Virus record (IMG/VR): IMGVR_UViG_3300037063_000214
Reading direction: 5' to 3' (one strand)
Length of the DNA stretch: 24,942 bases
DNA from: a virus
The position numbers were made by a program, and so were the translations under genes. The first letter of the stretch is position 1. Each line of letters opens with the position of its first letter. Positions 1,614 through 23,965 of this stretch are shown here, one piece after another. The notes beneath the pieces were generated by a model. That model ran no database searches. It was given only the letters and a program-made list of their open reading frames with translations, and was not told the DNA's origin.

Positions 1614-1706
1614 GCCTAGAACGCAGATACGGTTGGCTGCATCCGGCTGTAACCCGGAATTTGGCTAGTCCAGACAATGGGAGTTCGAATCTCTCTCTAG
1701 GCACCA
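1614..1706 (+). tRNA. tRNA-Tyr, anticodon GTA. Class II with a long variable arm. CCA is encoded.
   Basis: Acceptor gcctaga/tctaggc. D arm gcag/ctgc. Anticodon stem tccgg/ccgga with loop ctGTAac. T arm gggag-ttcgaat-ctctc. Then ACCA. Confidence 0.75.
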
Positions 1707-1719
1707 AAATTTTATAGGG

Positions 1720-2001
1720 GTGATTATGGAAAAATTCATGTCCAGATCGGAACAGAAACGAGTAGCTTCAATGAAGGGAGAGCCCGCGCCTTCATTTGAG
1801 ATTAGAGTTGAATACGATGATGGCGAATCGGTTTGGCATGATGGTAAAAGTCCTTTTTGTACACGCAGGGATCGCCCAATGGGAATGTACGCTATGATGC
1901 CGGATGACACGCAGCGGCCTTTAAATATAGGGTACATGCGTGTGAGTGAAATGCAAGGATTGGAAAAACTCCTCAATGAAATTTTAAATTTTAAGAAATA
2001 G
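1720..2001 (+). CDS. Hypothetical 93-aa protein embedded in the tRNA cluster.
   Basis: Strong SD (agggggtga) 6 nt upstream of the ATG. It fills the gap between tRNA-Tyr and tRNA-Leu exactly. Confidence 0.55.
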   Translation: MIMEKFMSRSEQKRVASMKGEPAPSFEIRVEYDDGESVWHDGKSPFCTRRDRPMGMYAMMPDDTQRPLNIGYMRVSEMQGLEKLLNEILNFKK

Positions 2002-2005
2002 TTTT

Positions 2006-2090
2006 GCGGCTGTGGTGGAATGGGCAGACACACCATCTTGAGGGGGTGGCGTCGAAAGATGTGAGAGTTCAAATCTCTCCAGCCGCACCA
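2006..2090 (+). tRNA. tRNA-Leu, anticodon GAG. Class II. CCA is encoded.
   Basis: Acceptor gcggctg/cagccgc. Anticodon stem ccatc/ggtgg with loop ttGAGgg. Variable-arm hairpin cgtc-gaaa-gatg. T arm gagag-ttcaaat-ctctc. A73 and CCA. Confidence 0.8.
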
Positions 2091-2225
2091 AGTTTAGAGT
2101 CAAACCGTAGTTGTGAGGTTGCAACGGGGAGCTAACACAATGCTGCTCGATAAGAAGCGAAAGCTTCCGCTCGCGGGCGTAAGGTCGGGGTGCAGGCGTT
2201 GATCCGTTGCCTCTAAAATAAGTTT

Positions 2226-2311
2226 GCCGGGTTGGTGGAATTGGGAGACACTCTGGACTTAGGATCCAGCGGTTAACAGCCATGCAGGTTCGACCCCTGT
2301 ACTCGGCACCA
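2226..2311 (+). tRNA. tRNA-Leu, anticodon TAG. Class II. CCA is encoded.
   Basis: Acceptor gccgggt/actcggc with one G-U pair. Anticodon stem ctgga/tccag with loop ctTAGga. Long variable arm. T arm gcagg-ttcgacc-cctgt. ACCA. Confidence 0.8.
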
Positions 2312-2318
2312 AAAATTT

Positions 2319-2409
2319 GCGCGGGTGATGAAACTAGGGAGACATGCAGCGTTCAGACCGCTGTGCCCTTAAACAAGGCGTGCAGGTTCAATTCCTGTTC
2401 CGCGCACCA
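2319..2409 (+). tRNA. tRNA-Leu, anticodon CAG. Class II. CCA is encoded.
   Basis: Acceptor gcgcggg/tccgcgc. Anticodon stem cagcg/cgctg with loop ttCAGac. Variable-arm hairpin cctt-aaac-aagg. T arm gcagg-ttcaatt-cctgt. ACCA. Confidence 0.8.
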
Positions 2410-2422
2410 ATTTTGTAGATAG

Positions 2423-2513
2423 GCCAGAATGGCGGAATTAGGGAGACGCGCACGGCTCAAGCCCGTGTGAGCCTAAAAAACTCGTGGGGGTTCGATTCCC
2501 CCTTCTGGCACCA
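2423..2513 (+). tRNA. tRNA-Leu, anticodon CAA. Class II. CCA is encoded.
   Basis: Acceptor gccagaa/ttctggc. Anticodon stem cacgg/ccgtg with loop ctCAAgc. Long variable arm. T arm ggggg-ttcgatt-ccccc. ACCA. Confidence 0.8.
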
Positions 2514-4289: not shown

Positions 4290-5276
4290 ATGGCAAATGC
4301 AAGCGCAAAAAAATTAGATTTTGACGATGAAGATGAATACGAGCCTCGTCCAGAAATAGGGTCAGATGACGATCAAGCTTATTATCATTGGTCCAAGCGA
4401 AATGGGGTATTTCGCCCTGTAGGTCACACTCAAGATACCGTACCAGCCGGTATTTATGAAATTGATAACGATAATAGCGGCTGGTTCCTATCCAAAGTAA
4501 AATTTCCATCAGATGCTCTACTCCGTTTACCTGGAATGCCTATTGATTTTATCCTTGATCAAATTGACACATTTTGGAAGCGTGAAGAATTATTCACCCA
4601 AACCAAACTCCTCCATAAGCGTGGTATTTTGATGTATGGACCCGCAGGCTGCGGTAAAACATCAATCATTAGACTGCTCTGTGACGATATTGTTAGACGT
4701 GATGGTATTGTGATCATGGTTACTAACTGCCGCTTGGCGGAAACGGCTCTTGGGGGCATTAGGCAAATAGAAACTCGTAGACCTATTCTTACAATTATTG
4801 AAGACATCGAAACCTTCATGGGTCCTGGTGATGAATCTTCATCCGCCAGAGCACTGTTGGCTCTGTTAGACGGAGAAACTCAAGTGGATCACATTGTTCA
4901 TTTGGCCACGAGTAATAAACCTGAACAATTGGAAGATCGTGTCGCTAAGCGTCCTGGGCGTTTTGATCTAGTAGTAAAATTAAGTCATCCGGTGGAAGAA
5001 GCCCGTAGAGCATACCTGTTAAATTTACTCCACGATCATGTAACCCCTGAAGAACTTCAGATTATGGTAGATGAAACTGAAGGTTTGGGATTGGCCCACT
5101 TACGCGAGTTGGTTGTAGCAAACTATTGCTTAGGCTTGGATCGTAAGCAAACATTAAAGCGTTTAAAGAAAAATTTCACAGGATCCTTAAAGGTCAAAAA
5201 GTCGCCCAGCGAGGGAATGGGATTTACCTTTGGTATCGATGAAGATGAAGATGAAAAATCATTAAAAAATGAGTAA
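4290..5276 (+). CDS. AAA ATPase of the classic AAA clade with a roughly 110-aa N-terminal domain.
   Basis: Walker A GPAGCGKTS. Walker B ILTIIEDIE. Second region of homology ATSNKPEQLEDRVAKRPGRFD, which is FtsH/CDC48-like. Confidence 0.85.
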   Translation: MANASAKKLDFDDEDEYEPRPEIGSDDDQAYYHWSKRNGVFRPVGHTQDTVPAGIYEIDNDNSGWFLSKVKFPSDALLRLPGMPIDFILDQIDTFWKREELFTQTKLLHKRGILMYGPAGCGKTSIIRLLCDDIVRRDGIVIMVTNCRLAETALGGIRQIETRRPILTIIEDIETFMGPGDESSSARALLALLDGETQVDHIVHLATSNKPEQLEDRVAKRPGRFDLVVKLSHPVEEARRAYLLNLLHDHVTPEELQIMVDETEGLGLAHLRELVVANYCLGLDRKQTLKRLKKNFTGSLKVKKSPSEGMGFTFGIDEDEDEKSLKNE

Positions 5277-5278
5277 AT

Positions 5279-6343
5279 ATGCCTGATGAAATTGAACTAC
5301 CTAAAAACGAATTCGACATACTACAGGATCGTATGCAAGCCTCTGAAGTGAACCGTAGAATACTTGGGGCCAATCCAGCAAGCGAGATGAGAAAAGTAGC
5401 ATCCGTGGATGGTAGTACACTTCTTTCATCCATGACAAAAAATCAATGGGCTGTATTACCGAATGATTCATTCACAGCCATTGGTACTACGGTTTCTCAT
5501 TTACCTCCAGCGATTTATACTTTATCGTCCGATGGGGGCGCGATATTTTTCCATAAAACTAAAGTTCTTACTGATAATTTAATTGATCTGGATGATAGCG
5601 CGGCTTTGCGAATCATTGCCGGAATTGAGAAATTTTGGGAATCTAAATCCAAATTTGATCGTTTTGGTATTCTCTTCAAGCGCGGCATTCTTATGTGGGG
5701 ACCGGCGGGGTCTGGAAAAACTGCCACAGTTAACATGTTGATGAATGATTTGGTGGGGCGCGGTGGAATGGTTGTAATTGTGCAATTCCCAGGTCTTGCG
5801 ATTGGGGGACTTCATGAACTTCGACGCATTGAACCGGAGCGTCCAATTATTGTAGTATTAGAGGACATCGAAGAAATGATACAAAATTTCGGAGAGCACG
5901 GATTGCTAAGTCTGCTTGACGGAGAGCACCAAGTTTCTAATGTTGTTGTACTGGCTACCACAAATTACCCAGAGCTTCTTGGCGAACGTATTATCAATCG
6001 ACCAAGCCGTTTTGATGAAGTTATTTTAGTAGATATGCCTTCCAAGAATGCACGATATCGGTATCTCAAGCACATATTAAAAGACACGGTACCAGAAGTA
6101 GAACTCCGGCAGTGGGTTATAGCAACCGACAAGCTATCCATCGCCCATTTACGAGAGCTTATTGTTGCTACTCAATGCTTGGATCGCCCATATGCCGAAG
6201 TTGTAGATCGTTTGAGGCGTATGAAAATTCGCCCGAATAGCGAGAAACGCGATAAAGAAGTTCCAGGCTTTTCAAATGTGGGCATGATAATTCCCGGGAA
6301 TTTTTCAAAGGAATGTGGGGGTTCAAGTACATCAAGTAGATAA
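5279..6343 (+). CDS. Second AAA ATPase, a paralogue of the upstream gene. Classic AAA clade.
   Basis: Walker A GPAGSGKTA. Walker B IIVVLEDIEE. SRH ATTNYPELLGERIINRPSRFD. It starts 3 nt after the upstream stop, so the two are translationally coupled. Confidence 0.85.
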   Translation: MPDEIELPKNEFDILQDRMQASEVNRRILGANPASEMRKVASVDGSTLLSSMTKNQWAVLPNDSFTAIGTTVSHLPPAIYTLSSDGGAIFFHKTKVLTDNLIDLDDSAALRIIAGIEKFWESKSKFDRFGILFKRGILMWGPAGSGKTATVNMLMNDLVGRGGMVVIVQFPGLAIGGLHELRRIEPERPIIVVLEDIEEMIQNFGEHGLLSLLDGEHQVSNVVVLATTNYPELLGERIINRPSRFDEVILVDMPSKNARYRYLKHILKDTVPEVELRQWVIATDKLSIAHLRELIVATQCLDRPYAEVVDRLRRMKIRPNSEKRDKEVPGFSNVGMIIPGNFSKECGGSSTSSR

Positions 6344-6399
6344 ATGTCAAGAGCAAATAGTTATGCACAATACTAATAAAGGCTGGTATAGGAAAAAAT

Positions 6400-7542
6400 A
6401 TGTCACATTATAGTGTTTTAGTTATCGGTGAAAACGTAGAAGAACAATTAGCCCCCTTTCATGAATTTGAATGTACCGGGGATGACAATGAGTATGTGCA
6501 AGATGTAGATGATACAGAAGAAGCCAGGGAATCTTATAAAGCCGATAAAACAACCATGTATAAAGATCCAGATGGTAACTTACACAGTCCTTGGACAAAA
6601 GAAGGACACGCCAAATCTGAATTTTATCGAGACCCTACACCAAAAGAAGAAAAAGAACGGGAAGAAACGGGATATTCTAACCTATCTTGTACATCTCAAG
6701 ACTGGGGTGACGGTAGGGGATATAGAGACAGAATTAAGTGTCTCCCTGAGGGCTGGCAAGAAGTAGAAGTGCTCACATCTTCTGTGGAAACTTTCGCTGA
6801 ATTCATTAAAGGTTATTACGGGCATGAACCTGTTGCTTTTGGTGAATCTCCTGACCTTGATGAAACCCACAAGTATGGATATGTGATACTTGACGAAAAA
6901 GGTGAAGTGGTACGAAGTATCAATCGGACCAACCCAAATAAAAAATGGGACTGGTGGACTCTCGGTGGTAGATGGAACGGCTTCTTTAAAACAAAAAAAG
7001 CAGGAGTAGGGGTAATGGGTGCGCCTGGTTTGCAATCGGCGCATGAGGATTATGAACCACCTACTGACGATCGTGCCGATGTTTGTACTAAGGATGATAT
7101 CGATATCGATGGGATGCGAGATGAAGCAGAACGCGAAGCCGGTAAGAGTTATGATTTGTATTCCAAAATAGTAGCTGGACTACCTCCGATTGTATCTTGG
7201 GAAGCTACAGTCGAAAAGCATAACAAAGATTACGCCGCTGCTAGAGAAGAATATAATGCACAACCGGCCGTATTAGTGCTTCGAAAGAACGAAGAGACTA
7301 CTTGGTATGACGCAGATGATTATTTGTGTTCTAGAGAGGTTTTTATTCAACGCTCACGGAATGCTGCTTTCTCTACTTTCGCTGTGGTTAAAGACGGTAA
7401 GTGGTACGAACGCGGGGAGATGGGTTGGTGGGGCGTGGTGAGGGATGAAAAAGACGCAGATGAATGGTATACTCAGTTTGCATCTCTTGTGGATAGTCTG
7501 CCTGGGGATACTGTAATGACTGTGGTAGATTGTCATATATAG
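6400..7542 (+). CDS. Highly acidic 380-aa hypothetical protein.
   Basis: Long clean ORF. It is D/E-rich and contains WDWWTLGGRWNGFF. No family was recognised. Confidence 0.7.
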   Translation: MSHYSVLVIGENVEEQLAPFHEFECTGDDNEYVQDVDDTEEARESYKADKTTMYKDPDGNLHSPWTKEGHAKSEFYRDPTPKEEKEREETGYSNLSCTSQDWGDGRGYRDRIKCLPEGWQEVEVLTSSVETFAEFIKGYYGHEPVAFGESPDLDETHKYGYVILDEKGEVVRSINRTNPNKKWDWWTLGGRWNGFFKTKKAGVGVMGAPGLQSAHEDYEPPTDDRADVCTKDDIDIDGMRDEAEREAGKSYDLYSKIVAGLPPIVSWEATVEKHNKDYAAAREEYNAQPAVLVLRKNEETTWYDADDYLCSREVFIQRSRNAAFSTFAVVKDGKWYERGEMGWWGVVRDEKDADEWYTQFASLVDSLPGDTVMTVVDCHI

Positions 7543-7657
7543 GAGCCGATAAACAGGCAGCAAGGTGGGGTTCGGTAGAACCGACAAAATGATGCGAGAA
7601 GCGGACAAGCACTTCATATGACGGCTGTAGTATCATAGGTACAAGGAATAACAGGTG

Positions 7658-8209
7658 ATGAAAATAGAGGATTCTGTGGAAACTGTGAATACATCAGCTA
7701 AAATTGATATCTTTAAATATGAATGGGAATTTTTGTCTAATTTTTATCCCTGTGAGATTGTTTGGGAAGGAATTACTTACGCTTCCACAGAGCACGCATA
7801 CCAAGCGGCTAAGACACTGGATATAGAGAAACGCCGGATGTTTGGATTAGAAGACAACCCTCGTTTAACAGCCAAAAAAGCAAAAGATATGGGAGCAAAT
7901 ATCAAGAAGAACGGAGAGCTGCGCTCCGATTGGCTCAAAGTCAATATCGGCATCATGCGGGAATTGTTGGTATTGAAATTTGAGAAAGAAGAGCTGAAAC
8001 AAAAATTATTGTCCACAGGCACCGCTTATTTGGAAGAAGGGAACTGGTGGGAAGACAATTTTTGGGGTGTTTGTTATGGGGGCACAGAAAAAGGGTTCCA
8101 TGGAATCAAATGCGGCAAATGGCCCCATGTCCCTTCGGGTGAAAATCATTTAGGTTTATTGCTTATGGCTATTAGGGCTACGTTTATTCCTAGAATACAG
8201 GTGGCATAA
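7658..8209 (+). CDS. NADAR-domain protein (YbiA/DUF1768-like). Predicted ADP-ribose-processing hydrolase.
   Basis: Signature IDIFKYEWEFLSNFYPCEIVWEGITYASTEHAYQAAK. aggtg sits immediately upstream of the ATG. Confidence 0.8.
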   Translation: MKIEDSVETVNTSAKIDIFKYEWEFLSNFYPCEIVWEGITYASTEHAYQAAKTLDIEKRRMFGLEDNPRLTAKKAKDMGANIKKNGELRSDWLKVNIGIMRELLVLKFEKEELKQKLLSTGTAYLEEGNWWEDNFWGVCYGGTEKGFHGIKCGKWPHVPSGENHLGLLLMAIRATFIPRIQVA

Positions 8210-8210
8210 A

Positions 8211-8387
8211 ATGACAAAAAACGAAATACTATACAACTTAAAAAACGGACGAAGGTTGCGTTGCGATAGGAAAGATGAACCGTTATTGCCTTGGTTGCTA
8301 GAACATCCAAACATCCAGAATAAATTTGTGCAAGTTGATGACCAGTCTAGCTATATTGAATTTATTTGGGAGAAAAATAATCCTTGA
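8211..8387 (+). CDS. Hypothetical 58-aa protein.
   Basis: ATG lies 1 nt after the NADAR stop. It is 58 codons long. Its stop overlaps the TTGACA of the next promoter. It is too short for the ORF track. Confidence 0.4.
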   Translation: MTKNEILYNLKNGRRLRCDRKDEPLLPWLLEHPNIQNKFVQVDDQSSYIEFIWEKNNP

Positions 8388-8412
8388 CAATTTTTCAACT
8401 ACCCAGTATTAT
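8384..8412 (+). promoter_or_regulatory. Sigma70-consensus promoter, TTGACA-17-TATTAT. Same family as the promoter at 1392.
   Basis: TTGACA at 8384-8389 and TATTAT at 8407-8412. The shared core is caactacccagtattata. Confidence 0.7.
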
Positions 8413-8656
8413 ATAAAGAGTAGTAGTAAAGTAAAAGTTGGCTCGGAACGAGCCATCAGGAAATGGGGGGTTTTGGGTAAAACTGAAGCCCATCACCAAA
8501 ATTGAGATAATTATGACCAAAATGCGACCGATGCCGATGTTTCCACCAAGCCCTATGGGGCGCGGGGTCGCTGGACTTTAGTCCAACCCCGTGCTAGCGG
8601 GGTTCTGTTGTTGTAACAAATTTTCCCATATCAAACAGAAATCCCTTTTTGCATTT

Positions 8657-8731
8657 CAGGGTATAGTGTTAATGGTAGCACCCTAGTTTCGGGAACTAGT
8701 AGTCTCAGATCATTCCTGAGTACCCTGACCA
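8657..8731 (+). tRNA. tRNA-Pro, anticodon CGG. It has Pro identity elements C1:G72 and A73. The T-loop is non-canonical, atcattc, with A54:U58 swapped.
   Basis: Acceptor cagggta/taccctg. D arm gtgt/gcac with GG in the loop. Anticodon stem ctagt/actag with loop ttCGGga. T stem ctcag/ctgag. ACCA. Confidence 0.6.
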
Positions 8732-8830
8732 GTTTACGGTGTAGCTCAGCCCGGTTTAGAGCAAGCACACCGACTTTCGTTACTTTTTGTACAGCTATCA
8801 AGATTTTTTGTAAAAGGAGTTACTTTTAAG

Positions 8831-8905
8831 CAGGGCGTAGATCAGAGGAAGATCGCAAGTCTGGGGGACTTGAGGCCGGAATATCATAATTTCCCGCCCT
8901 GACCA
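8831..8905 (+). tRNA. tRNA-Pro, anticodon GGG. C1:G72 and A73. The T-loop is non-canonical, atcataa, again with A54:U58. One T-stem pair is a mismatch.
   Basis: Acceptor cagggcg/cgccctg. D arm gatc/gatc. Anticodon stem caagt/acttg with loop ctGGGgg. Then ACCA. Confidence 0.55.
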
Positions 8906-8927
8906 CAGTTTGAAAATTTAAATTTAA

Positions 8928-9013
8928 CTAGGTGTCGGGTAGTTTGGTTTAGCCCACATGCCTTGGGCGCATGTCTCGAAAGAGAATCGCAGGTTCAAAT
9001 CCTGCCACCTAGA
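8928..9013 (+). tRNA. tRNA-Pro-like, anticodon TGG. C1:G72 and A73, but with a class-II-like 15-nt variable-arm hairpin (tctc-gaaa-gaga). No CCA is encoded.
   Basis: Acceptor ctaggtg/cacctag is perfect. D arm gggt/gccc. Anticodon stem catgc/gcatg with loop ctTGGgc. T arm gcagg-ttcaaat-cctgc is canonical. Confidence 0.5.
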
Positions 9014-9079
9014 CATTGGCGACTGTCAGCCGTTAGTAAGTCTGACTTAAAGGCGCATAGAGCGCAGTCGCACTTTTTT

Positions 9080-9340
9080 ATGAGTGTATTCGGCAATACA
9101 TGCGGCGTACGCATTTACAGAGGTCCATGCACCTGTAAAACTGCCTGCCCTAAATGTCAAATAGGCTGCTGGAATCCCGCTGCATATCGTAACCCATGGT
9201 TTGGGAAGCCTGGGCACCAGATTTATTGGTGGAGGGATCCATACAGCTACGCGGAATTTTTATGCGTAGAGCATTATGATGATGCTGTTAAAGACATTGA
9301 AGAATATGAAGAACTTTACCAAACGAAGGGTGTTTGCTGA
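9080..9340 (+). CDS. Cysteine-rich small protein containing CGVRIYRGPCTCKTACPKCQIGCW. The start is uncertain.
   Basis: The first part of the ORF-track ORF 8963-9340 overlaps the tRNA-Pro(TGG)-like gene, so the internal ATG at 9080 was taken. Confidence 0.4.
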   Translation: MSVFGNTCGVRIYRGPCTCKTACPKCQIGCWNPAAYRNPWFGKPGHQIYWWRDPYSYAEFLCVEHYDDAVKDIEEYEELYQTKGVC

Positions 9341-9341
9341 A

Positions 9342-9530
9342 ATGAAATATATTTATGAAGATCACGAGAAGCATACCACATGGGAATGTGAAGCCGAGGA
9401 TTTGCTTGCAGCGGATAAACTCTATGAAGCCGCTGGATGTAGGATGAGTGAAAACGCAAAAAGAAAAAAATCTATGCCTAATGATGTAGGGGCATGGTCA
9501 CCCGATTGGGCGTGTAACAAAAAGGCATAA
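9342..9530 (+). CDS. Hypothetical small protein.
   Basis: ATG lies 2 nt after the upstream stop. Confidence 0.4.
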   Translation: MKYIYEDHEKHTTWECEAEDLLAADKLYEAAGCRMSENAKRKKSMPNDVGAWSPDWACNKKA

Positions 9531-9558
9531 TAGGTTTATTCCAACTAATGGAGGAAGT

Positions 9559-10219
9559 ATGATTATCGAAATTAGAGCGGCTGAAGGCGGACAGGACGCA
9601 AAATTACTGGTCGAAGATCAAATGACCATCTACGCGAGGTTGGCGATACGGAGGGGTCTTTGAGTTTGATGTTACCGAACAACGCCCAGGTATAGCTATC
9701 CTGCGCATTACAGGGGCTACAGCGCCTCAAGTCTTCGCTAACGAGGCAGGAGGTCACCGTTTTCAGAGAATTCCTCCCACGGAGCGTAGCGGTAGAGTTC
9801 AAACCAGTACAATTACTGTGGCTGTTTTTGATGAACCGGAAGTTGCTGCTTTTGCCGTATCCCCAAATGATTTGGCATGGGAGACAATGCGCAGCGGGGG
9901 TAAGGGCGGTCAAAACGCCAATAAACTGGAAACAAAAATACGCTTAAAACATAAACCTACAGGATTAGTCGTGGTTTGCGAATCAGAACGTAGCCAAAAA
10001 AGAAATAAAGACACGGCCTTAGCTGTCCTTACAGCACGTTTGTACGCTGCTGATAAGGATAAAAAAGCTGAAGCTGCTACTACGGATAGGCGACAACAAA
10101 TAGGAACGGGACAACGAGGAGATAAACGCCGTACAATACGAGAAAAAGATGGAAAAGTCGTAGACCATATCACCGGTCAAAAATGGCGTTATTCTGATTA
10201 TGTAAAAGGCATTTGGTAA
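9559..10219 (+). CDS. Class-I release-factor homologue lacking domain 1, of the RF-H/PrfH type. The GGQ motif is present. Translation requires a +1 frameshift at CTT-TGA (9658-9663). Frame 1 covers 9559-9660 and frame 2 covers 9662-10219.
   Basis: Frame 1 reads MIIEIRAAEGGQDAKLLVEDQMTIYARLAIRRGL and then TGA. The +1 frame continues EFDVTEQRPG...GGHRFQRIPPTERSGRVQTSTITVAV...SGGKGGQNANKLETKIRLKHKPTGLVVVCESERSQKRNKDTALAVLTARL...DHITGQKW. Both parts align colinearly with RF1 domains 2-4. There is no start codon in the second frame between its upstream stop at 9623-9625 and the shift site. A GGAGGGG SD-like element sits just before CTT TGA G, as in prfB. Confidence 0.75.
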
Positions 10220-10222
10220 AAA

Positions 10223-10834
10223 ATGGAACAATATCCACATATCGAAGGCAGTACAAAGGCTCCTATAGGAGAACCGTGCATCGCTTTTTATAAGTACGAT
10301 GGTAGTAATCTGCGCTTCGAATGGAGCCCTAAAAAAGGCTGGCATAAGTTTGGCACCAGAAAAGAACTTTTTGACGCTCGCCATCCTTTGTGGTCTCAAG
10401 CCCTTCCCTTGTTTTTAGAGTTTGGAGATGAGATTGTAAAACGAGTGAAAGCATCGGATTGGCGATTGAAAGGTATCCAACGAATTACTGTTTTTTGTGA
10501 ATTCTTTGGACCTAGCAGTTTTGCCGGAATTCATGATGAAAAAGAGCCTAAAGAATTGCGTTTGATCGATGTATACCTTTTCAAAAAAGGTATGATGCCA
10601 GCGAAGCAATTTGTAGAAATTTTTGGAGATATGCCCCAGGCAGCACAGGTAATTTATCAGGGAAATTTGACTAAGCAATTCATAGATGATGTGCGCTTTG
10701 GGGCTTATTCTGTGAATGAGGGCGTGGTCGCTAAGGGCGCTGATTTTCGGGTAAAAATAAAAACTGCTGCTTACTTCAAAAAATTGAATGAACGGCTCCC
10801 AGAGTTAGCGAATGCCTTTGATTGTGAGTATTAG
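10223..10834 (+). CDS. Minimal ATP-dependent RNA ligase of the Rnl2 family. Adenylyltransferase core only, 203 aa.
   Basis: Motif I KYDGSN (KxxGxN). Motif III ITVFCEFFGPSSFAG (compare Rnl2 VFGEFAGPG). Motif IV EGVVAK. Motif V RVKIKT. It starts 4 nt after the release-factor stop. Confidence 0.75.
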   Translation: MEQYPHIEGSTKAPIGEPCIAFYKYDGSNLRFEWSPKKGWHKFGTRKELFDARHPLWSQALPLFLEFGDEIVKRVKASDWRLKGIQRITVFCEFFGPSSFAGIHDEKEPKELRLIDVYLFKKGMMPAKQFVEIFGDMPQAAQVIYQGNLTKQFIDDVRFGAYSVNEGVVAKGADFRVKIKTAAYFKKLNERLPELANAFDCEY

Positions 10835-10844
10835 ACTCTGTACG

Positions 10845-11110
10845 AGTTTGTGCTAATACGAGGTGCGGAGTTCCATAGATTTAGGCGGAACAAGACCTAA
10901 TTTCGGAACTCTACTGGCGACGGTCAGAGTTACCTCGTAGCACAATTTCCCAAACAGATACTTGTCTGGGAGAACTTGAGGACTCAGTGAGCCTCAGGTG
11001 GGGCATATTGGTGGACCCCTGTCCTTCGGGACTTAATCTGGCGGCCCAAGACGAGGAGTCAAGGGCTTAAAGAATCCTAGATTTTTAGTCTGGGAGCATC
11101 AAGCAGTATT
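10845..11110 (+). ncRNA. Structured non-coding region and candidate ncRNA. It has a long closing helix (gtgctaatacgaggt / acctcgtagcac), nested hairpins, and a gtcc-ttcg-ggac tetraloop hairpin.
   Basis: No ORF. Multiple compensatory stems were read by eye. Function unknown. Confidence 0.3.
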
Positions 11111-11172
11111 TTTTCAATTGGTGTATTCACCGTTTGCAGATTTGTACCGCTGGGGTTAATAAGGACGGTTGG

Positions 11173-11189
11173 TATGGAAAGTATAGGGA
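11173..11189 (+). repeat. Direct repeat atggaaagtataggga(c). A second copy lies at 11299-11316. The pair flanks tRNA-Met.
   Basis: A 16-nt exact match occurs 126 bp downstream. The second copy forms the hairpin tatag-ggaa-ctata just upstream of tnpB. Confidence 0.6.
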
Positions 11190-11211
11190 CTTGGTAAAAT
11201 TTTTTATTTAC

Positions 11212-11290
11212 GCCAGTGTAGCATAGTCCGGCCTAATGCGCTTCGCTCATAACGAAGAGATCGGTGGTTCAAATCCACCCGCTGGTACCA
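11212..11290 (+). tRNA. tRNA-Met (elongator type), or tRNA-Ile2 if lysidinylated. Anticodon CAT. CCA is encoded.
   Basis: Acceptor gccagtg/cgctggt with two G-U pairs. D arm gcat/atgc. Anticodon stem cttcg/cgaag with loop ctCATaa. T arm ggtgg-ttcaaat-ccacc. ACCA. Confidence 0.7.
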
Positions 11291-11349
11291 AAATTTTAAT
11301 GGAAAGTATAGGGAACTATATAGTTAACTCCCCCGGCTAGAACATAACA

Positions 11350-12477
11350 ATGCTGAGAACTTTTCAATGTCGGTTGTATCCAAACGCGACGCAGAGACAC
11401 GCGCTGGAGTTCGTCTTGCGTGACAACGCGGAGACGTACAACGCGGCTCTTGCAGAGCGCCGAGATGCATGGAAGTTGGAGCGCAAGGCGATCACCTATC
11501 GAATGCAACAGGACGAACTAACAGAACTACGCCGTGATGAACAATTTGCAAGAGTCGCCTGCGACATTCAACGTGATCCCTTGAGAAGGGTTGACCGAGC
11601 ATTCCAAGCGTTCTTTCGGCGTTGTAAAGCAGGCCAGAAGCCAGGCTTTCCTCGTTTTCGCTCTCATCTGCGCTACGACTCTTTTGGATTCAGTCTCCCA
11701 GTCGTGAATAGTGAACGTCTGAGGATTCCGAATGTGGGGCAGATCAAACTGCGCGGAGGCCGCAGCATTGCAGGTAAGGCGAAGTGTTGCACGGTCAAGC
11801 GAGACGGCAACCGTTGGACGGCTTCAGTCGTGTGCGACATTGGTCCGGCACCAGGGAAGCGTATGGTAACAAATGCTGTCGGAATAGATATGGGCCTGAC
11901 GACGCTCGCCACGCTGTCGGACGGGACGGAGATTGAGAACCCACGCTGGACCCGACAGCACGAAGACCTGATTGCAGCCGCGAATCGCCTACTGGCACGG
12001 AAGCATAAACGTTCGAAGAACCGCATCCGGGCGCGGGAAGCACTGCATCGCGCTCACCAGCGGGCCGCGAATGCCCGTCGCAACTATCTGCATCACGTTT
12101 CCAAATGGCTTGTGGGTAATTACGACCTGATCGCCCACGAAGCCTTAAACATTAAAGGCATGGCGCAAGGACATTTCGCCAAGTCGATTATGGATGCCGC
12201 ATGGAGCATTCTGCTGTCGCAAGTACGCTACAAGGCTGAGAGTGCCGGAGTGTACGCGATAGCGGTGAATCCACGCGGCACGTCACAAATGTGTTCGGGT
12301 TGCGGTCGAAACGTTCCGAAGAAACTGGCGCAGCGGGTGCATAGCTGTCCGCACTGCGGTCTAGTTCTGGGGCGTGACCACAATGCCGGACGGAACATTT
12401 TAGCGTTGGGGATCAACGCTGCGGGCGTAAGCCTTCAAAATCTACACACGACTCGGGTTAGGGAGTTATGTATATAA
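11350..12477 (+). CDS. tnpB: TnpB (IS200/IS605 family OrfB), an RNA-guided RuvC-like nuclease.
   Basis: N-terminal MLRTFQCRLYPNATQRHALE. RuvC-I GIDMGL. RuvC-II LIAHEALNIKGM. C-terminal zinc finger CSGCG...CPHCG followed by RDHNAGRNI. It is markedly more GC-rich than the flanking DNA. Confidence 0.9.
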   Translation: MLRTFQCRLYPNATQRHALEFVLRDNAETYNAALAERRDAWKLERKAITYRMQQDELTELRRDEQFARVACDIQRDPLRRVDRAFQAFFRRCKAGQKPGFPRFRSHLRYDSFGFSLPVVNSERLRIPNVGQIKLRGGRSIAGKAKCCTVKRDGNRWTASVVCDIGPAPGKRMVTNAVGIDMGLTTLATLSDGTEIENPRWTRQHEDLIAAANRLLARKHKRSKNRIRAREALHRAHQRAANARRNYLHHVSKWLVGNYDLIAHEALNIKGMAQGHFAKSIMDAAWSILLSQVRYKAESAGVYAIAVNPRGTSQMCSGCGRNVPKKLAQRVHSCPHCGLVLGRDHNAGRNILALGINAAGVSLQNLHTTRVRELCI

Positions 12478-12489
12478 GTCCCAAATATC

Positions 12490-12518
12490 TTGACAATTTT
12501 TTAATTATAGGTATTATA
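12490..12518 (+). promoter_or_regulatory. Sigma70-consensus promoter of the TTGACA / TATTAT family. It lies directly after the tnpB stop and points into the structured region.
   Basis: TTGACA at 12490-12495 and attata/tattat 17 nt downstream. Confidence 0.6.
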
Positions 12519-12743
12519 ATAATTGAAGCGTGGAACCCTTTTTACCTGACGAGGGAGTTTGTCGAAGTTGAGCCGCTCCTGCGATGATTGGCGGATCAAC
12601 AAGGTCTCGCAAGAGAGTGAGCTTAGCAAAGCTCCAACCGTGCAACAGGGTTCCCACTTTCTTATTTAAGTTTTGGGATAGGCAGTCGCCTTAAAGCGTC
12701 TGCCAATGGAAGTGCATAGCGCTTTCCGTTCCCAATAAAATTT

Positions 12744-12821
12744 GCGGGGATTAAGCTACGGTGCGCTTGGATGTCTCATAAGCATTCCTCTTAGGTGGTT
12801 CAACTCCACCCTCCGCTACCA
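12744..12821 (+). pseudogene. Degenerate tRNA-like element with a CAT anticodon arm. It is possibly a remnant or duplicate of tRNA-Met.
   Basis: D arm aagc/gctt. Anticodon stem gatgt/gcatt with loop ctCATaa. T arm ggtgg-ttcaact-ccacc. It ends in tACCA, but the acceptor stem pairs poorly. Confidence 0.35.
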
Positions 12822-17201: not shown

Positions 17202-17810
17202 ATGAGAATTTTGGTAGCTTGTGAGTATTCCGGGGTTGTACGAGAGGCATTCAAAGCATTGGGTCATGATGCTTGGAGTTGTGATATTTTGCCTACGGAA
17301 ATACCGGGGCAACATTACGAATGCCCAGTAGAGGAAGTATTGAATCTCGGATGGGATTTGATGATAGCGCATCCTCCGTGTACATACTTGTGTAGCAGCG
17401 GGTTACATTGGAATAAGCGTATACCAGGGCGAGCAGAAAAAACAGAAGAAGCCTTGAAGTTTGTCCAATTGCTAATGAACGCTCCTATTGAAAAAATAGC
17501 GTTAGAGAATCCTATCGGTTGTATCTCTTCCCGAATTAGAAAACCAGATCAAGTGATTCAACCATGGCAATACGGTCACCCGGAGTCTAAACAAACAGCG
17601 TTATGGCTTAAAAATTTATCACCTCTTCAGCCTACTAACATATTGGAACCTCCAGCTTATCAAAAGAATGGTAAACCTCAGTGGAACAATCAAACACCGA
17701 CTGGTCAAAATAAGTTAGGACCATCACCCACCCGCGGTCTGGAGCGCAGCCGTACATACACAGGAATAGGAACAGCTATGGCTTTGCAATGGGGATCAGA
17801 TGGCAGATGA
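17202..17810 (+). CDS. Minimal C5-cytosine-methyltransferase-like protein of 202 aa. No target-recognition domain is evident.
   Basis: Motif-I-like ILVACEYSGVV. PC motif AHPPCTYLCSSG, compare GPPCQxFSxAG. ENV-like ALENPIG. Confidence 0.5.
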   Translation: MRILVACEYSGVVREAFKALGHDAWSCDILPTEIPGQHYECPVEEVLNLGWDLMIAHPPCTYLCSSGLHWNKRIPGRAEKTEEALKFVQLLMNAPIEKIALENPIGCISSRIRKPDQVIQPWQYGHPESKQTALWLKNLSPLQPTNILEPPAYQKNGKPQWNNQTPTGQNKLGPSPTRGLERSRTYTGIGTAMALQWGSDGR

Positions 17811-18594
17811 AACTAAAAAACAGTGTCCTCAATGTAATGGACAAATTGATTTTTTTGGGTCATGTAGAAAATGCGGTAGGCAGTGGTCTGAAGATTTAGA
17901 GTTGGGGGAGAAAGCTTTTGGTTTACCTGAAGGTGAACAGTATAAGTCTGTCGTTAAAAAAATAGGCACACACATTCCTCGTAAGAATCGTTTTACCAAA
18001 TCAAAAGGAGCGCTTGCTGGTAAAGATTTTAAAACTTTTGCACCTGAAGTACCGCCAAAATATCAAAATTGGCAGATTAACGCTGATTATGATGATGTTA
18101 CAGAGATCGTAAAAAAACGAGCTTTGATGCGGTTGGATTCCCGTAAACTTTACTCCGCTTTGGGGTTATCTATAAGAGCTTCCGACTGCCAAAAAGCTAC
18201 TCTTTCATCTTTATCTCGAATGTGGGAATTTCTGGATGAAGAAGAGAAAAAAATCCTTTCCCCTACAATGGAGCGTCTTAAGATTACTCTAGGTGAAATT
18301 CAAAAAGTATGCGAGAAAAAAATCATCGAAACATCTGAAATGGAAAAAGCTCTAGAAAAAGCTCGAATGTCTGCTCGTAAAGCAAGAATTCGTATTACAG
18401 CTGATGAACAAAAAGCTCAAATAGCCGCTAAACAAATTATCCCCGGGGAAGATACTGAAGGTTTGAGTGACCCAGAACCGCAGTTTATTTCACCATCCGC
18501 ATTACTTGAGCAAGCTAAAGAAAAACTCATCGCCTTAGCTAAAGAGAAAAATCTCAAAAAAGGGCATATCAAGCAAGATGAATCAGAAGAATAA
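17800..18594 (+). CDS. Hypothetical protein with an N-terminal zinc ribbon (CPQCNG...CRKCG) and a charged, coiled-coil-like C-terminus.
   Basis: Clean ORF. It overlaps the upstream gene by 11 nt. Confidence 0.6.
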   Translation: MADETKKQCPQCNGQIDFFGSCRKCGRQWSEDLELGEKAFGLPEGEQYKSVVKKIGTHIPRKNRFTKSKGALAGKDFKTFAPEVPPKYQNWQINADYDDVTEIVKKRALMRLDSRKLYSALGLSIRASDCQKATLSSLSRMWEFLDEEEKKILSPTMERLKITLGEIQKVCEKKIIETSEMEKALEKARMSARKARIRITADEQKAQIAAKQIIPGEDTEGLSDPEPQFISPSALLEQAKEKLIALAKEKNLKKGHIKQDESEE

Positions 18595-20572
18595 ATTATC
18601 CAAGGACTGGTGGCTAGCTCAACGATGGGATAAGTTAAAACTTGACCCCAATCAACAAATGCCAGATAAATGGTCAGAAGGTAGTGGGTTAAAATTAAGG
18701 TTTTTATGTGAGTGCGGTCGTATATCATTTACATCATTTGGCAGCGCTATAAAATCTACGAGTTGCGGGAAGTGTACATTCAAATCTAAAGAATATTGGC
18801 TTTCTCAAAAATGGGGCAAAGTTAAAATTGATCCTACGCAATTACTACCCAATGAGTGGGGACCCAGCAGCGGTAGAAAAATTATATATTTATGTGACTG
18901 CGGAAAAACTATTAAAGCAAATATGTGCAGGACTCTACAATCTTGCGGAAAATGCTCATTTCTTCCCAAGGAACATTGGCTAAGTTTGAAATATGGAGAA
19001 TTAAGTTTGATTTCTGACCAAGAATTACCCGATGAATGGGGGCCTAACTCTAATTATAGATTTGAATATTTATGCTCCTGCGGCAAAACTACAAAAACAA
19101 TGTTTGAAAATGTAAGCACTGGACATTCAGTGTCTTGCGGTAAATGCACAGCAAAACCTTTATCTTGGTGGCTGGAGCAAAAATGGGGGAAATTAAGGAT
19201 GGATTCAAGCCAAGAATTACTTGGACAAGCAGCCCCAAAAACAAATATAAAATTATGGTTTTTATGCGATTGTGGCAATAAAACACATGCTCTCATTTCC
19301 AATGTAACTACGGGGCGTACAAAATCGTGTGATAAGTGTAATTATAAGCCTAAAGAGTATTGGTTAGCACAACGATGGGATAAATTAATAATTGACCCAA
19401 ATCAAATACTTCCAGATGAGTGGGGACTACAATCTGAAATTAAAGTAAGGTGTATTTGTGACTGTGGGACTATTAGAAATTTTATTTTTTATTATATTAA
19501 TAACGGAACTACTAATTCCTGCGGTCAGTGTTCTTGGATGAGTAAAGAGCACTGGCTAAAACAAAAATGGGGTAAATTAGTGATTGATATAAATCAAAAA
19601 CTATTAGATAACTGGGGTTCTTCTGTAGACTATTTACTGAAATTTAATTGCGATTGTGGGGGCAATATAATTTTACCTTTTGGTAGAGTAAATAGAGGTA
19701 GTACTAAATCTTGTGGGTGCCTTCGAATAGGTCAAAATGAATTTTCCGCTGAAAATGAAATTAGAAAATTTGTAATGTCATTAGCATCGGACACATTTTC
19801 TACATCTTATAAAATCCCAAATTCTCGTAAAACATACGATGTTTACGTTCCTTCAAAAAAATTAGCTATAGAATTTCATGGTCTTATCTGGCATGGAGAA
19901 AAATTTTCAACAAAGGGGAGTAAAAAAAATGATTTTGATAAATATATTCTCAGCAGGCAGAGAGGTGATAGATTAATACAGATTTATGCGGATGAATGGA
20001 AAAATAAACAATCAATAATAAAAAACATGATTGAAAATATACTATCTCCCCTTAAAGGTAGAAGAATTTCCCCGAAATATACGGTAGAAAATATTACTTC
20101 AATGGTAACTAGGGATTTTCTTGACCGAAGTCATTACCTTGGAGCCGCTTCTGGGTGTCTTACCGTTATAGCTAAACATCATGATCAAATAGTAGGAGTA
20201 TGGGTCTTTATGAAGCGGGAAGAAGGTACTGTGTTATGGCATAGAGCCTGCTGGGATCATCGATATAAAACTTGGAACCCGCATGAGAAAGCTTTAAATA
20301 TATCAATACCTTTATTAAAAGCTATGGGATTTACTCGTATTATCACTTTTTCTGATAATAGATTTCATACGGGAAATCTATATGAAAAGTTAGGGTTTGT
20401 TTTTGAAAAAAATTTAGATCCTGAATACAGTTATACAAATGGTAATAGCAGAGTGTCCAAATACACAATGAGAGTAGAAGCGGGGCGTAACGAAAAACTT
20501 GAAGCTGAAGCCAAGGGCTGGTACAGGATTTGGGATAGCGGGAAAAAGAGGTACAGTTTATCTCTGGAATAA
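18578..20572 (+). CDS. 664-aa protein with six tandem zinc-ribbon repeats of roughly 60 aa, a Vsr/DUF559-like PD-(D/E)xK endonuclease motif, and an unrecognised C-terminal domain.
   Basis: Each repeat follows the pattern K(E/D)(Y/H)WL.Q(K/R)WGKL..D..Q.LPDEWG...FLCDCG...SCGKC. Vsr-like YDVYVPSKKLAIEFHGLIWHGEKF ... RQRGDRLIQIYADEW. Confidence 0.75.
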   Translation: MNQKNKLSKDWWLAQRWDKLKLDPNQQMPDKWSEGSGLKLRFLCECGRISFTSFGSAIKSTSCGKCTFKSKEYWLSQKWGKVKIDPTQLLPNEWGPSSGRKIIYLCDCGKTIKANMCRTLQSCGKCSFLPKEHWLSLKYGELSLISDQELPDEWGPNSNYRFEYLCSCGKTTKTMFENVSTGHSVSCGKCTAKPLSWWLEQKWGKLRMDSSQELLGQAAPKTNIKLWFLCDCGNKTHALISNVTTGRTKSCDKCNYKPKEYWLAQRWDKLIIDPNQILPDEWGLQSEIKVRCICDCGTIRNFIFYYINNGTTNSCGQCSWMSKEHWLKQKWGKLVIDINQKLLDNWGSSVDYLLKFNCDCGGNIILPFGRVNRGSTKSCGCLRIGQNEFSAENEIRKFVMSLASDTFSTSYKIPNSRKTYDVYVPSKKLAIEFHGLIWHGEKFSTKGSKKNDFDKYILSRQRGDRLIQIYADEWKNKQSIIKNMIENILSPLKGRRISPKYTVENITSMVTRDFLDRSHYLGAASGCLTVIAKHHDQIVGVWVFMKREEGTVLWHRACWDHRYKTWNPHEKALNISIPLLKAMGFTRIITFSDNRFHTGNLYEKLGFVFEKNLDPEYSYTNGNSRVSKYTMRVEAGRNEKLEAEAKGWYRIWDSGKKRYSLSLE

Positions 20573-20606
20573 AGCTATCTTTCAGTTATATTTATAGAGA
20601 AATTTT

Positions 20607-23243: not shown

Positions 23244-23965
23244 TGGATGAAGGCTTATCAAACGCTCCGAAACAAACCCGAAAAAAGCGCGTGGTTCGGA
23301 ACGGTCATCCGTCGAATAAGCTTGTCCTGAGTGCCTTTTCAGAGACAAATAACCGAGCCTTCCCAGAGATTCTCCAATTGTACGTGGACGCTAAAAGTGT
23401 CGTTGCTGACGTGACCTATGGTAAGGGCGTCTTTTGGAAGAATATTCCGAAGGATAAATACGTCTTGAAGGCGACCGATATTCGGGATGGCATTGATTGC
23501 CGGAAGTTGCCTTACAAGGACGGCGAGATAGATTGTGTTGTGTTTGATCCACCCTACATGCATACTCCTGGAGGTACGGCTCACTCGTCCCACACTCCAT
23601 TTGAGAGTCACTATAGGAATAATGGCACTGGTAACGGTACGGCCAGCAAATACCATGAAGCCGTCCTTGACCTGTATAAAGAGGGCGGCAGAGAAGCGTA
23701 TCGAGTTTTACGGAAACAGGGAGTCTTGATCGTAAAATGCCAAGATGAGGTATGCGCCAACCGCCAACGGTTTACGCATGTTGAAATCATGCAAATGTAC
23801 AAAGAACTCGGATTCGTAGCGGAAGATTTGTTTGTAATAGTCCGCAACAATCGCCCGGGAGTTAGCCGCATGGTTCGCCAAGTTCACGCCCGTAAGAACC
23901 ATTCCTATTTTTTGGTCTTCTGGAAAAACGGATCCGGTACAGGAAGATGGGAACCCCCAAAGTGA
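23240..23965 (+). CDS. DNA amino-methyltransferase, N6-adenine or N4-cytosine.
   Basis: Motif I DVTYGKG. Catalytic motif IV VVFDPPY. ATGA overlaps the upstream stop. Confidence 0.75.

Follow-up and report, generated by a model that had tools for sequence, protein, structure and literature searches.

Introduction

The T4 protein gp30.3 (AdfN), a NADAR, takes ADP-ribose off the DNA of the phage and overcomes DarTG1 (Johannesman et al., PMC11257639/PMC11825919). Two unrelated phage NADARs, those of Bas32 and Bas60, likewise protect phages against DarTG1 and also neutralise DarT1 (PMC11257639/PMC11825919), and DarTG1 is thereby countered by all three of the phage NADARs tested (T4, Bas32 and Bas60; PMC11825919). 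Guanine-linked ADP-ribose is hydrolysed by every NADAR tested, across four families (PMC11125620, PMC12945103). These families can be sorted by the residue at one catalytic position, residue 127 in the numbering of the protein described below, which is Glu in NADAR/YbiA, with Asp taking its place in DarG1 and His in proteins of the T4 type (PMC11543638, PMC12945103). The Glu-type families hydrolyse C-ADPr as well, on both DNA and RNA, and in vitro E. coli YbiA acts on ADP-ribose attached to either G or C (PMC11125620, PMC12945103).

Here we describe a NADAR gene in a stretch of viral DNA of 24,942 nucleotides (IMG/VR record IMGVR_UViG_3300037063_000214), referred to below as the window. An earlier note on this DNA had read the gene as a possible counter to ADP-ribosylating defences, and its premise, that some NADARs reverse guanine ADP-ribosylation by DarT-like toxins, agrees with published work (PMC11825919). 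Counter-defence by phage NADARs is an already established mechanism; what is new here is one more member of the family.

Results

A NADAR gene in phage DNA

The gene is an open reading frame on the + strand that encodes 183 residues, running from an ATG at 7658 to a TAA at 8207–8209. In-frame GTG codons at 7655 (just upstream) and 7676 provide alternative starts, and the JGI gene call took 7676.

7643 to 7647, + strand: AAGGA, a Shine-Dalgarno-like motif found in the sequence 10 nt 5' of the ATG at 7658
7658 to 8209, + strand: NADAR-domain gene encoding 183 residues (from the ORF list and the sequence)

The encoded protein contains a single domain in Pfam. Its match to NADAR (PF08719) scores 74 bits (E = 2.2e-20) against a gathering cut-off of 35.1 bits and covers positions 10–161 of the 163 in the profile, which is far beyond chance. 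A match to phrog_1017 in PHROG (E = 4e-36) was also found, together with 2227 homologues at E <= 1e-5 in a large protein collection. The NADAR signature quoted in the earlier note is exact, with FKYEWEFLSNFYP corresponding to residues 19–31 and STEHAYQAAK to residues 43–52, and the NADAR identity claimed there is upheld by the profile match and by the predicted fold and catalytic residues described below. The ORF at 7658–8209 is confirmed as a real gene. Among cultured phages, 340 of 50,697 records encode a homologue, every one at less than 60% identity; the top matches (44–47% identical) come from Klebsiella, Xylella and Xanthomonas phages and are all uncharacterised.

The window also encodes a family-A DNA polymerase (PolA), a portal-like protein, DNA methyltransferases, nine tRNAs and a TnpB element. 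A phage location for the gene, as originally proposed, is supported by the portal-like gene, PolA, the nine tRNAs and the gene order shared with contigs of jumbo phages, and by gene content and synteny together the window can be assigned to an uncultured jumbo phage. Its PolA has 42% identity to the polymerase of Tunturi_5, a 309-kb jumbo phage of Tunturiibacter (Acidobacteriota); no synteny with Tunturi_5 was found around the PolA gene of the latter. A near-identity DNA search with positions 5000–12000 against cultured phages returned no match. The sequence is otherwise recorded only as an identical 12.6-kb JGI metagenome contig.

Conserved position within a replication region

The closest homologues of the NADAR protein (~46–59% identical) are encoded on metagenomic contigs of 0.45–0.9 Mb, which share an order of genes with the window. 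On the 5' side this order begins with a 5'-3' exonuclease and continues, after an interval, with REC, two AAA genes and small variable ORFs up to NADAR. On the 3' side a variable stretch is followed by the tRNAs, a ligase-like gene with RF-1 and, further on, PolA. The genes that directly precede NADAR in the window are as follows.

4290 to 6343, + strand: two paralogous classic AAA ATPase genes (4290–5276 and 5279–6343; Pfam AAA)
6400 to 7542, + strand: gene for an acidic protein of 380 residues (pI 4.58, phrog_10079), between the second AAA gene and NADAR

NADAR thus keeps a conserved position in the replication region of a lineage of jumbo phages and does not belong to a reshuffled accessory island. 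This runs against the anti-defence island that had been claimed around it: the AAA pair, NADAR, RF-1 and PolA instead make up a conserved syntenic backbone. No neighbour in the window scored above threshold for a known defence or anti-defence family in Pfam, NCBIfam, PHROG or PADLOC. The gene does lie upstream of the tRNAs, as had been said, at a distance of 450 nt, but this placement does not help the island, given the promoter-like and terminator-like sites in between. The promoter-like site (8384–8412) matches at 11 of 12 positions, the best in the region, and like the terminator-like hairpin (8585–8604) it falls between NADAR/ORF58 and the tRNA block; promoter-like sites in this region are no commoner than in shuffled sequence and so constitute weak evidence. 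Placement in a replication region has parallels in described phages. In T5-like phages, NADAR adjoins RNase H, thymidylate synthase and Nrd genes, and in T4 it adjoins DNA ligase.

In the PDB the AAA ATPases match AFG2, VAT and Cdc48 at their D2 domains, and the genes of the two ATPases precede NADAR in most of the related contigs. We considered a functional AAA-AAA-NADAR module and rejected it: one lineage keeps REC-NADAR-RF-1 without any AAA gene, another has only one AAA gene, and the AAA genes are separated from NADAR by small ORFs that vary or by the acidic gene. The acidic gene occupies the site between the second AAA gene and NADAR only in the window genome, being absent from all related loci examined, and its relatives are found in ~60-kb phages of Bordetella, Burkholderia and Pseudomonas. 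In five relatives NADAR is followed by a K/E-rich gene (125–133 residues, no Pfam family on record) that is absent from the window. Sequence searches of the PDB with the acidic 380-residue protein and with the 203-residue ligase-like protein gave no match. Within the 25-kb window no gene for an ADP-ribosyltransferase (ART), macrodomain, Nudix, riboflavin or other NAD-related protein was detectable. A toxin-antitoxin arrangement was also discarded, as ORF58, the acidic protein and the AAA genes gave no ART, Macro or Nudix signal in Pfam, PHROG or PADLOC.

Predicted fold and active site

The NADAR protein was modelled with AlphaFold2 from an alignment of 118 homologues; the model has a mean pLDDT of 94.4 and a pTM of 0.86, with ~14 low-confidence residues ahead of the core. 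A Foldseek search of the PDB with this model gave significant matches only to E. coli YbiA (2B3W; E = 2.7e-8, TM 0.67/0.73), which is the best structural match, and to the ADP-ribose-bound NADAR of Phytophthora nicotianae (PnNADAR; 8BAU, E = 2e-7). Matches at E <= 1e-3 were also obtained to 57 viral NADAR models. The predicted structure is a NADAR fold, with small beta elements on either side of an alpha-helical core, that can be superimposed on the solved NADARs.

The contacts to ADP-ribose in 8BAU are made by E43, K50, W89, E125, D130 and W133 (Schuller et al., PMC11543638), and these residues align with E45, K52, W92, E127, D133 and W136 of the phage protein. None of S27, E45, K52, W92, E127 and D133 varies across the 118 homologues, and at least 90% of them keep W136. 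The corresponding elements of the gene are listed here.

7730 to 7750, + strand: FLSNFYP motif, in which S27, N28 and F29 are invariant in the 118 homologues
7790 to 7813, + strand: EHAYQAAK, containing E45 and K52, both invariant and aligned to 8BAU
7931 to 7933, + strand: W92, invariant, equivalent to PnNADAR W89, a pyrophosphate contact (PMC11543638)
8036 to 8038, + strand: E127, the family-diagnostic catalytic acid, invariant in the 118 and equivalent to PnNADAR E125 and SCO5665 E167
8054 to 8065, + strand: D133-N-F-W136, equivalent by alignment to 8BAU to the diphosphate contacts D130 and W133 of PnNADAR

Functions for several of these positions are known from related proteins. The counterpart of S27 is S69 of SCO5665, a conserved serine of the substrate cleft (PMC12945103); S69, E87 and K94 are the substrate-channel residues of SCO5665. 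E45 corresponds to PnNADAR E43 and AdfN-T4 E36, which position the distal ribose, and K52 to PnNADAR K50 and AdfN-T4 K43, which bind the diphosphate (PMC11543638; mutagenesis in PMC11257639). Activity of AdfN-T4 requires the residues equivalent to E45 and K52 (PMC11257639), and the counterpart of E127 is essential in both SCO5665 and the C7 NADAR (PMC11543638, PMC12945103). Position 127 of the phage protein is Glu. Since no residue of the catalytic set, E127 and K52 among them, varies in the 118 homologues, catalysis appears to have been retained, and the protein is very probably an active NADAR hydrolase.

Comparison with known NADARs

In BLASTP comparisons the phage protein scores 87 bits against AdfN-Bas32 (bas32_0066; 37% identity), 60 bits against E. 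coli YbiA (33% identity) and 31.6 bits, over 71 residues, against T4 gp30.3. By these alignments AdfN-Bas32 is the closest of the three tested relatives compared (Bas32, YbiA and T4 gp30.3). A rough neighbour-joining tree, drawn with no bootstrap, places the phage protein within a metagenomic clade, with Bas32 just outside it, YbiA further off and T4 farthest.

AdfN-Bas32 shares with the phage protein its form as a stand-alone phage NADAR, the Glu-type site, the ...EGNxWxDxxWGVC...GxNxLG...LMxxR architecture and a sub-threshold score against TIGR02464, and its gene is likewise located in a region of replication and nucleotide metabolism. It is, however, shorter at 149 residues, and it lacks both the 21-residue Cys/His insertion described below and an E/H at position 132. 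Its host phage, Escherichia phage IrisVonRoten, is a T5-like member of the Markadamsvirinae, a ~112-kb coliphage and not a jumbo phage, and an identity of 37% does not guarantee an equal substrate range. PnNADAR (placed in the NADAR family with SCO5665 and the sigma70-linked E. coli NADAR) has the same fold and matching ADP-ribose contacts at 24% identity, but is a eukaryotic cellular protein, and its papers mention no Cys/His metal site. YbiA (2B3W) has the Glu-type catalytic residue in common with the phage protein but carries WGDG in place of WGVC and has no insertion, and ybiA lies on the chromosome, next to dinG in an operon under LexA control. T4 AdfN (gp30.3) and DarG1 belong to the same superfamily, with the same proposed task of removing guanine-linked ADP-ribose from DNA. 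T4 AdfN is a stand-alone phage protein, as here, but has His where the phage protein has Glu; DarG1 has Asp.

Family models separate the protein from several of these groups. Its score against TIGR02464, a riboflavin equivalog model and its best NCBIfam match, is 68.4 bits, similar to the 66.3 bits of the anti-DarTG1 protein AdfN-Bas32, below the trusted cut-off of 73.7 bits and far under the 169.5 bits of E. coli YbiA. Membership of YbiA/TIGR02464 was rejected on this sub-cut-off score and on the absence of ribA/ribD domains from the protein, the window and 20 related loci; the outcome that the earlier note had named as contrary to its proposal, a profile assignment to a riboflavin-pathway YbiA subgroup, was therefore not what we found. 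Membership of the T4 gp30.3 family (Phage_30_3, PF08010; 19.3 bits against a cut-off of 36) or of DS-32 NADAR (NF053876; 30.5 bits against 240) is likewise not indicated, and the 35.8 bits for PADLOC PDC-M42C represent generic NADAR similarity. DarG1 was rejected as well: the catalytic residue is Glu and not Asp, the N-terminal beta-beta-alpha extension is missing, and Pfam, PHROG and PADLOC reveal no adjacent ART-like gene.

An insertion with a putative zinc site

Between WGVC and GENHLG the phage protein carries 21 additional residues, YGGTEKGFHGIKCGKWPHVPS, which the alignments show to be missing from AdfN-Bas32 and YbiA and which are modelled at a pLDDT of 96–98.

8075 to 8137, + strand: 21-residue insertion, residues 140–160, between WGVC and GENHLG (from alignments)
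8051 to 8128, + strand: putative metal-binding set E132, C139, C152 and H157, framing the insertion (from column covariation)

An insertion of 8–32 residues is present at this site in 78 of the 118 homologues. In these 78, the columns equivalent to 132, 139, 152 and 157 read H-C-C-H in 68 and E-C-C-H in six, the phage protein included. In the 40 homologues that have no insertion, position 132 is mostly Gly or Asn, and neither the second Cys nor the His is present. A tetrahedral zinc site would be expected to produce just such covariation between the insertion and the distant ligand 132, which adjoins the catalytic D133, and the E/H-C-C-H set is probably a zinc site. Basic residues flank it. 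All of the insertion-bearing homologues whose context was examined lie in jumbo-phage synteny or on phage-like contigs.

PnNADAR also has an insertion at the equivalent position after the WG motif, near the active site, where it contributes to an extension of the substrate groove (PMC11543638); its sequence is unrelated to that of the phage insertion. A term search of the text of the two main structural papers on NADARs found neither 'zinc' nor 'cysteine'. In the main NADAR papers examined the Cys/His insertion goes unmentioned, and it is a new detail.

Divergence relative to neighbouring genes

NADAR evolves faster than its neighbours. Across the same related contigs it is only 46–58% identical, with the catalytic set invariant, against 61–82% for the flanking genes (67–82% for the first AAA protein, 75–82% for the second, 61–73% for PolA, 63–72% for RF-1 and 67–68% for the ligase-like protein). 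Faster divergence of NADAR is what host-driven diversifying pressure would be expected to produce, and the pattern fits such pressure on surface or specificity regions, although relaxed constraint could also explain it.

Discussion

At a probability of roughly 55%, our preferred reading is that the phage protein is an active ADP-ribosyl-nucleobase glycohydrolase which most likely removes host-imposed ADP-ribose from phage nucleic acid in the manner of AdfN. We infer the enzymatic activity from the invariant residues together with the tested homologues; we infer the substrate and the counter-defence role by analogy with those homologues, and on homology such a role is plausible. The uncultured jumbo phage would then carry a stand-alone Glu-type NADAR glycohydrolase in which K52, W92, D133 and W136 would hold the diphosphate of ADP-ribose, and E45 and E127 its distal ribose, while the N-glycosidic bond between ADP-ribose and the nucleobase would be hydrolysed. 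The likely substrate is guanine in single-stranded DNA or RNA and, because position 127 is Glu, cytosine is probably a substrate too, again in single-stranded DNA or RNA. Host ADP-ribosyltransferases, either DarT1-like or pierisin/ScARP-like, would modify the phage nucleic acid, and removal of ADP-ribose would let phage replication proceed.

Several points count against an AdfN-like role. YbiA and T4 gp30.3 are both active in vitro, yet gave no protection from DarT1 in uninfected cells. A gene that is lineage-wide and positionally conserved fits a housekeeping part in the phage cycle equally well. Identity to AdfN-Bas32 at the level of 37% is no guarantee of the same physiological substrate, and, as noted above, the window has no detectable ADP-ribosyltransferase, macrodomain or NAD-related gene.

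The same chemistry could be directed at RNA, with the enzyme removing base-linked ADP-ribose from tRNA, rRNA or mRNA as one component of a translation-protection toolkit that would also include the phage tRNAs, a GGQ-only release-factor-like protein and the ligase-like protein. NADARs do undo the ADP-ribosylation of guanosine and cytidine in RNA as well as in DNA, comparative genomics ties NADAR to RNA-repair contexts (PMC9503650), and in the window the gene stands 1.6 kb upstream of an RF-1-domain and KxDG ligase-like pair as well as 450 nt from the tRNAs. However, the promoter-like and terminator-like sites at 8384–8412 and 8585–8604 separate NADAR/ORF58 from the tRNA genes, the content of the interval from NADAR to RF-1 differs among the relatives, and the window contains no KptA/Tpt1 or RNA-targeting ART. 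We regard an RNA-directed toolkit as unlikely.

Similarly unlikely in our judgement is that the substrates are not nucleic-acid adducts but soluble molecules derived from ADP-ribose, such as immune signals or toxic breakdown products of NAD. Iyer et al. (2022, PMC9503650) proposed that phage NADAR, Macro and Nudix domains predominantly degrade such molecules, pointing out that these domains are enriched in medium-sized and jumbo phages and are expressed early, and cleavage of an N-glycosidic bond at ADP-ribose is compatible with substrates of this type. That proposal is nevertheless older than the experiments: all the phage NADARs tested since then act on DNA-linked ADP-ribose and rescue from DarTG1, none of the papers examined demonstrates a soluble-signal substrate for a NADAR, and no SLOG, Macro or Nudix partner is encoded in the window.

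The protein could also act non-catalytically, binding ADP-ribose and inhibiting a NAD-consuming defence of the host, or it could regulate an ADP-ribosyltransferase encoded elsewhere in the phage genome. The phage NADAR of a Retron-Eco1 study (Carabias et al. 2024) needs no enzymatic activity according to PMC11825919, and NADARs and ARTs are co-encoded in T4-like phages (PMC9503650). Against this stand the invariance of the whole catalytic set, E127 and K52 included, across 118 homologues and a window in which no ART is visible, and we judge a non-catalytic role to be highly improbable. Least credible of all is a housekeeping N-glycosidase of YbiA/RibX type that destroys reactive intermediates of the riboflavin pathway, for which TIGR02464 as the best NCBIfam match, the Glu-type active site common to YbiA and the automated JGI naming of homologues as 'ribA/ribD-fused uncharacterized protein' might be cited, but the TIGR02464 score is below cut-off and no better than that of AdfN-Bas32, the JGI names merely repeat the name of the model, neither the window nor the related loci contain riboflavin genes, and a phage has no obvious need for such a function.

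A small putative zinc knuckle (E/H132, C139, C152 and H157), grafted by D133/W136 where PnNADAR has its groove extension, may retune substrate recognition, possibly towards the phage's own modified DNA or a base or ADP-ribosyltransferase yet to be found. We therefore entertain, tentatively and with the odds against it, the idea that the insertion-bearing jumbo-phage NADARs form a distinct, undescribed subclass, characterised by a zinc knuckle and retuned substrate recognition, whose divergence records an arms race. If true, the above-background divergence of NADAR would reflect an arms race with ADP-ribosylating defences of soil bacteria.

By itself the finding adds one more member to a known family and no new mechanism. 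Reversal of DNA ADP-ribosylation by phage NADARs as a counter-defence has so far been demonstrated only for coliphages (T4, Bas32 and Bas60). Here the replication region of an uncultured lineage of soil jumbo phages has an intact and fast-evolving NADAR as a constant component, and the presence of the enzyme there suggests that ADP-ribosylating defences matter well beyond the enterobacteria. The insertion, with its probable zinc site, is a concrete feature through which the way NADARs acquire substrate specificity can be tested.

Genes on either side of NADAR

Window 4290-6343: two tandem paralogous genes for classic AAA ATPases
Window 6400-7542: gene for an acidic 380-aa protein (pI 4.58; phrog_10079, E = 1e-111)
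Window 8211-8387: 58-aa ORF, unique to the window

The two AAA ATPases upstream of NADAR share ~40% identity, and the top PDB matches of both are to the D2 domains of AFG2, VAT and Cdc48. Each is mostly 74-82% identical to its counterparts in the relatives (67% in one of them), and in most of the related phage contigs the pair is preceded by a REC-domain gene. Compared with the related loci, the acidic gene lying between the second AAA ATPase gene and NADAR is an insertion found in this genome only. Searches of Pfam and PDB returned no match for its product, and ~60-kb phages of Bordetella, Burkholderia and Pseudomonas encode proteins homologous to it (40-45% identity); a role as a DNA mimic or anti-restriction protein is conceivable.

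Downstream, the 58-aa ORF stands in place of two genes that are missing from the window. In five related contigs NADAR is followed directly on its 3' side by a conserved K/E-rich gene encoding 125-133 aa (L009:8500-8877, L014:6536-6931, L018:6613-6999, L022:7623-8009 and L023:7637-8038), after which comes a second conserved gene. The same phage synteny (REC, AAA, AAA, NADAR, then tRNAs, the ligase-like and RF-1 genes, and PolA) is carried by L006 (JGI Ga0374055_0000025), a single contig of 894,233 bp; the other related contigs grouped with it measure 447-463 kb. Provided that L006 represents a single genome rather than a misassembly or concatemer, its 894 kb would make it larger than any phage genome known to date.

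A candidate rescue pair among tRNA genes

Window 9818-10834: RF-1-domain gene (RF1/PrfH match) and ligase-like gene (KxDG motif, PHROG match)
Window 1614-2513, 8657-9014 and 11212-12817: three tRNA clusters
Window 11212-11290 and 12744-12817: tRNA-Met genes flanking TnpB
Window 11350-12477: TnpB/IS605 OrfB gene

The RF-1-domain protein (133 aa) retains the GGQ hydrolase part alone, matching RF1 residues ~200-320 and also PrfH. Downstream, with 3 nt between and the next start codon 4 nt on, is the gene for a 203-aa protein that weakly matches an RNA-ligase PHROG and bears the nucleotidyltransferase motif KxDG, here as KYDGS. The two genes are side by side in the relatives too, but which of them comes first varies. 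Most RF-1 proteins of the relatives have 180-195 aa and include a PCRF part; the one in L022 has 130 aa and lacks PCRF. Together the two proteins could rescue ribosomes or tRNAs as a PrfH/RtcB-like pair. The nine tRNA genes in the 25-kb window comprise one Tyr, four Leu isoacceptors, two Pro and two Met. The TnpB gene, at 55% GC (GC3 58%) against 40-43% in the surrounding region, appears to be a mobile element that was acquired recently.

DNA modification

Window 17202-23965: DNA-modification cluster, downstream of PolA

This cluster encodes a DNA methyltransferase (phrog_757), an HNH/Mom-like protein of 664 aa and an N6/N4 methylase; a portal-like gene of 878 aa is interspersed. By analogy with what has been proposed for T4 AdfN, the phage NADAR that removes ADP-ribose from DNA, modification of the phage DNA could affect the substrate specificity of NADAR.
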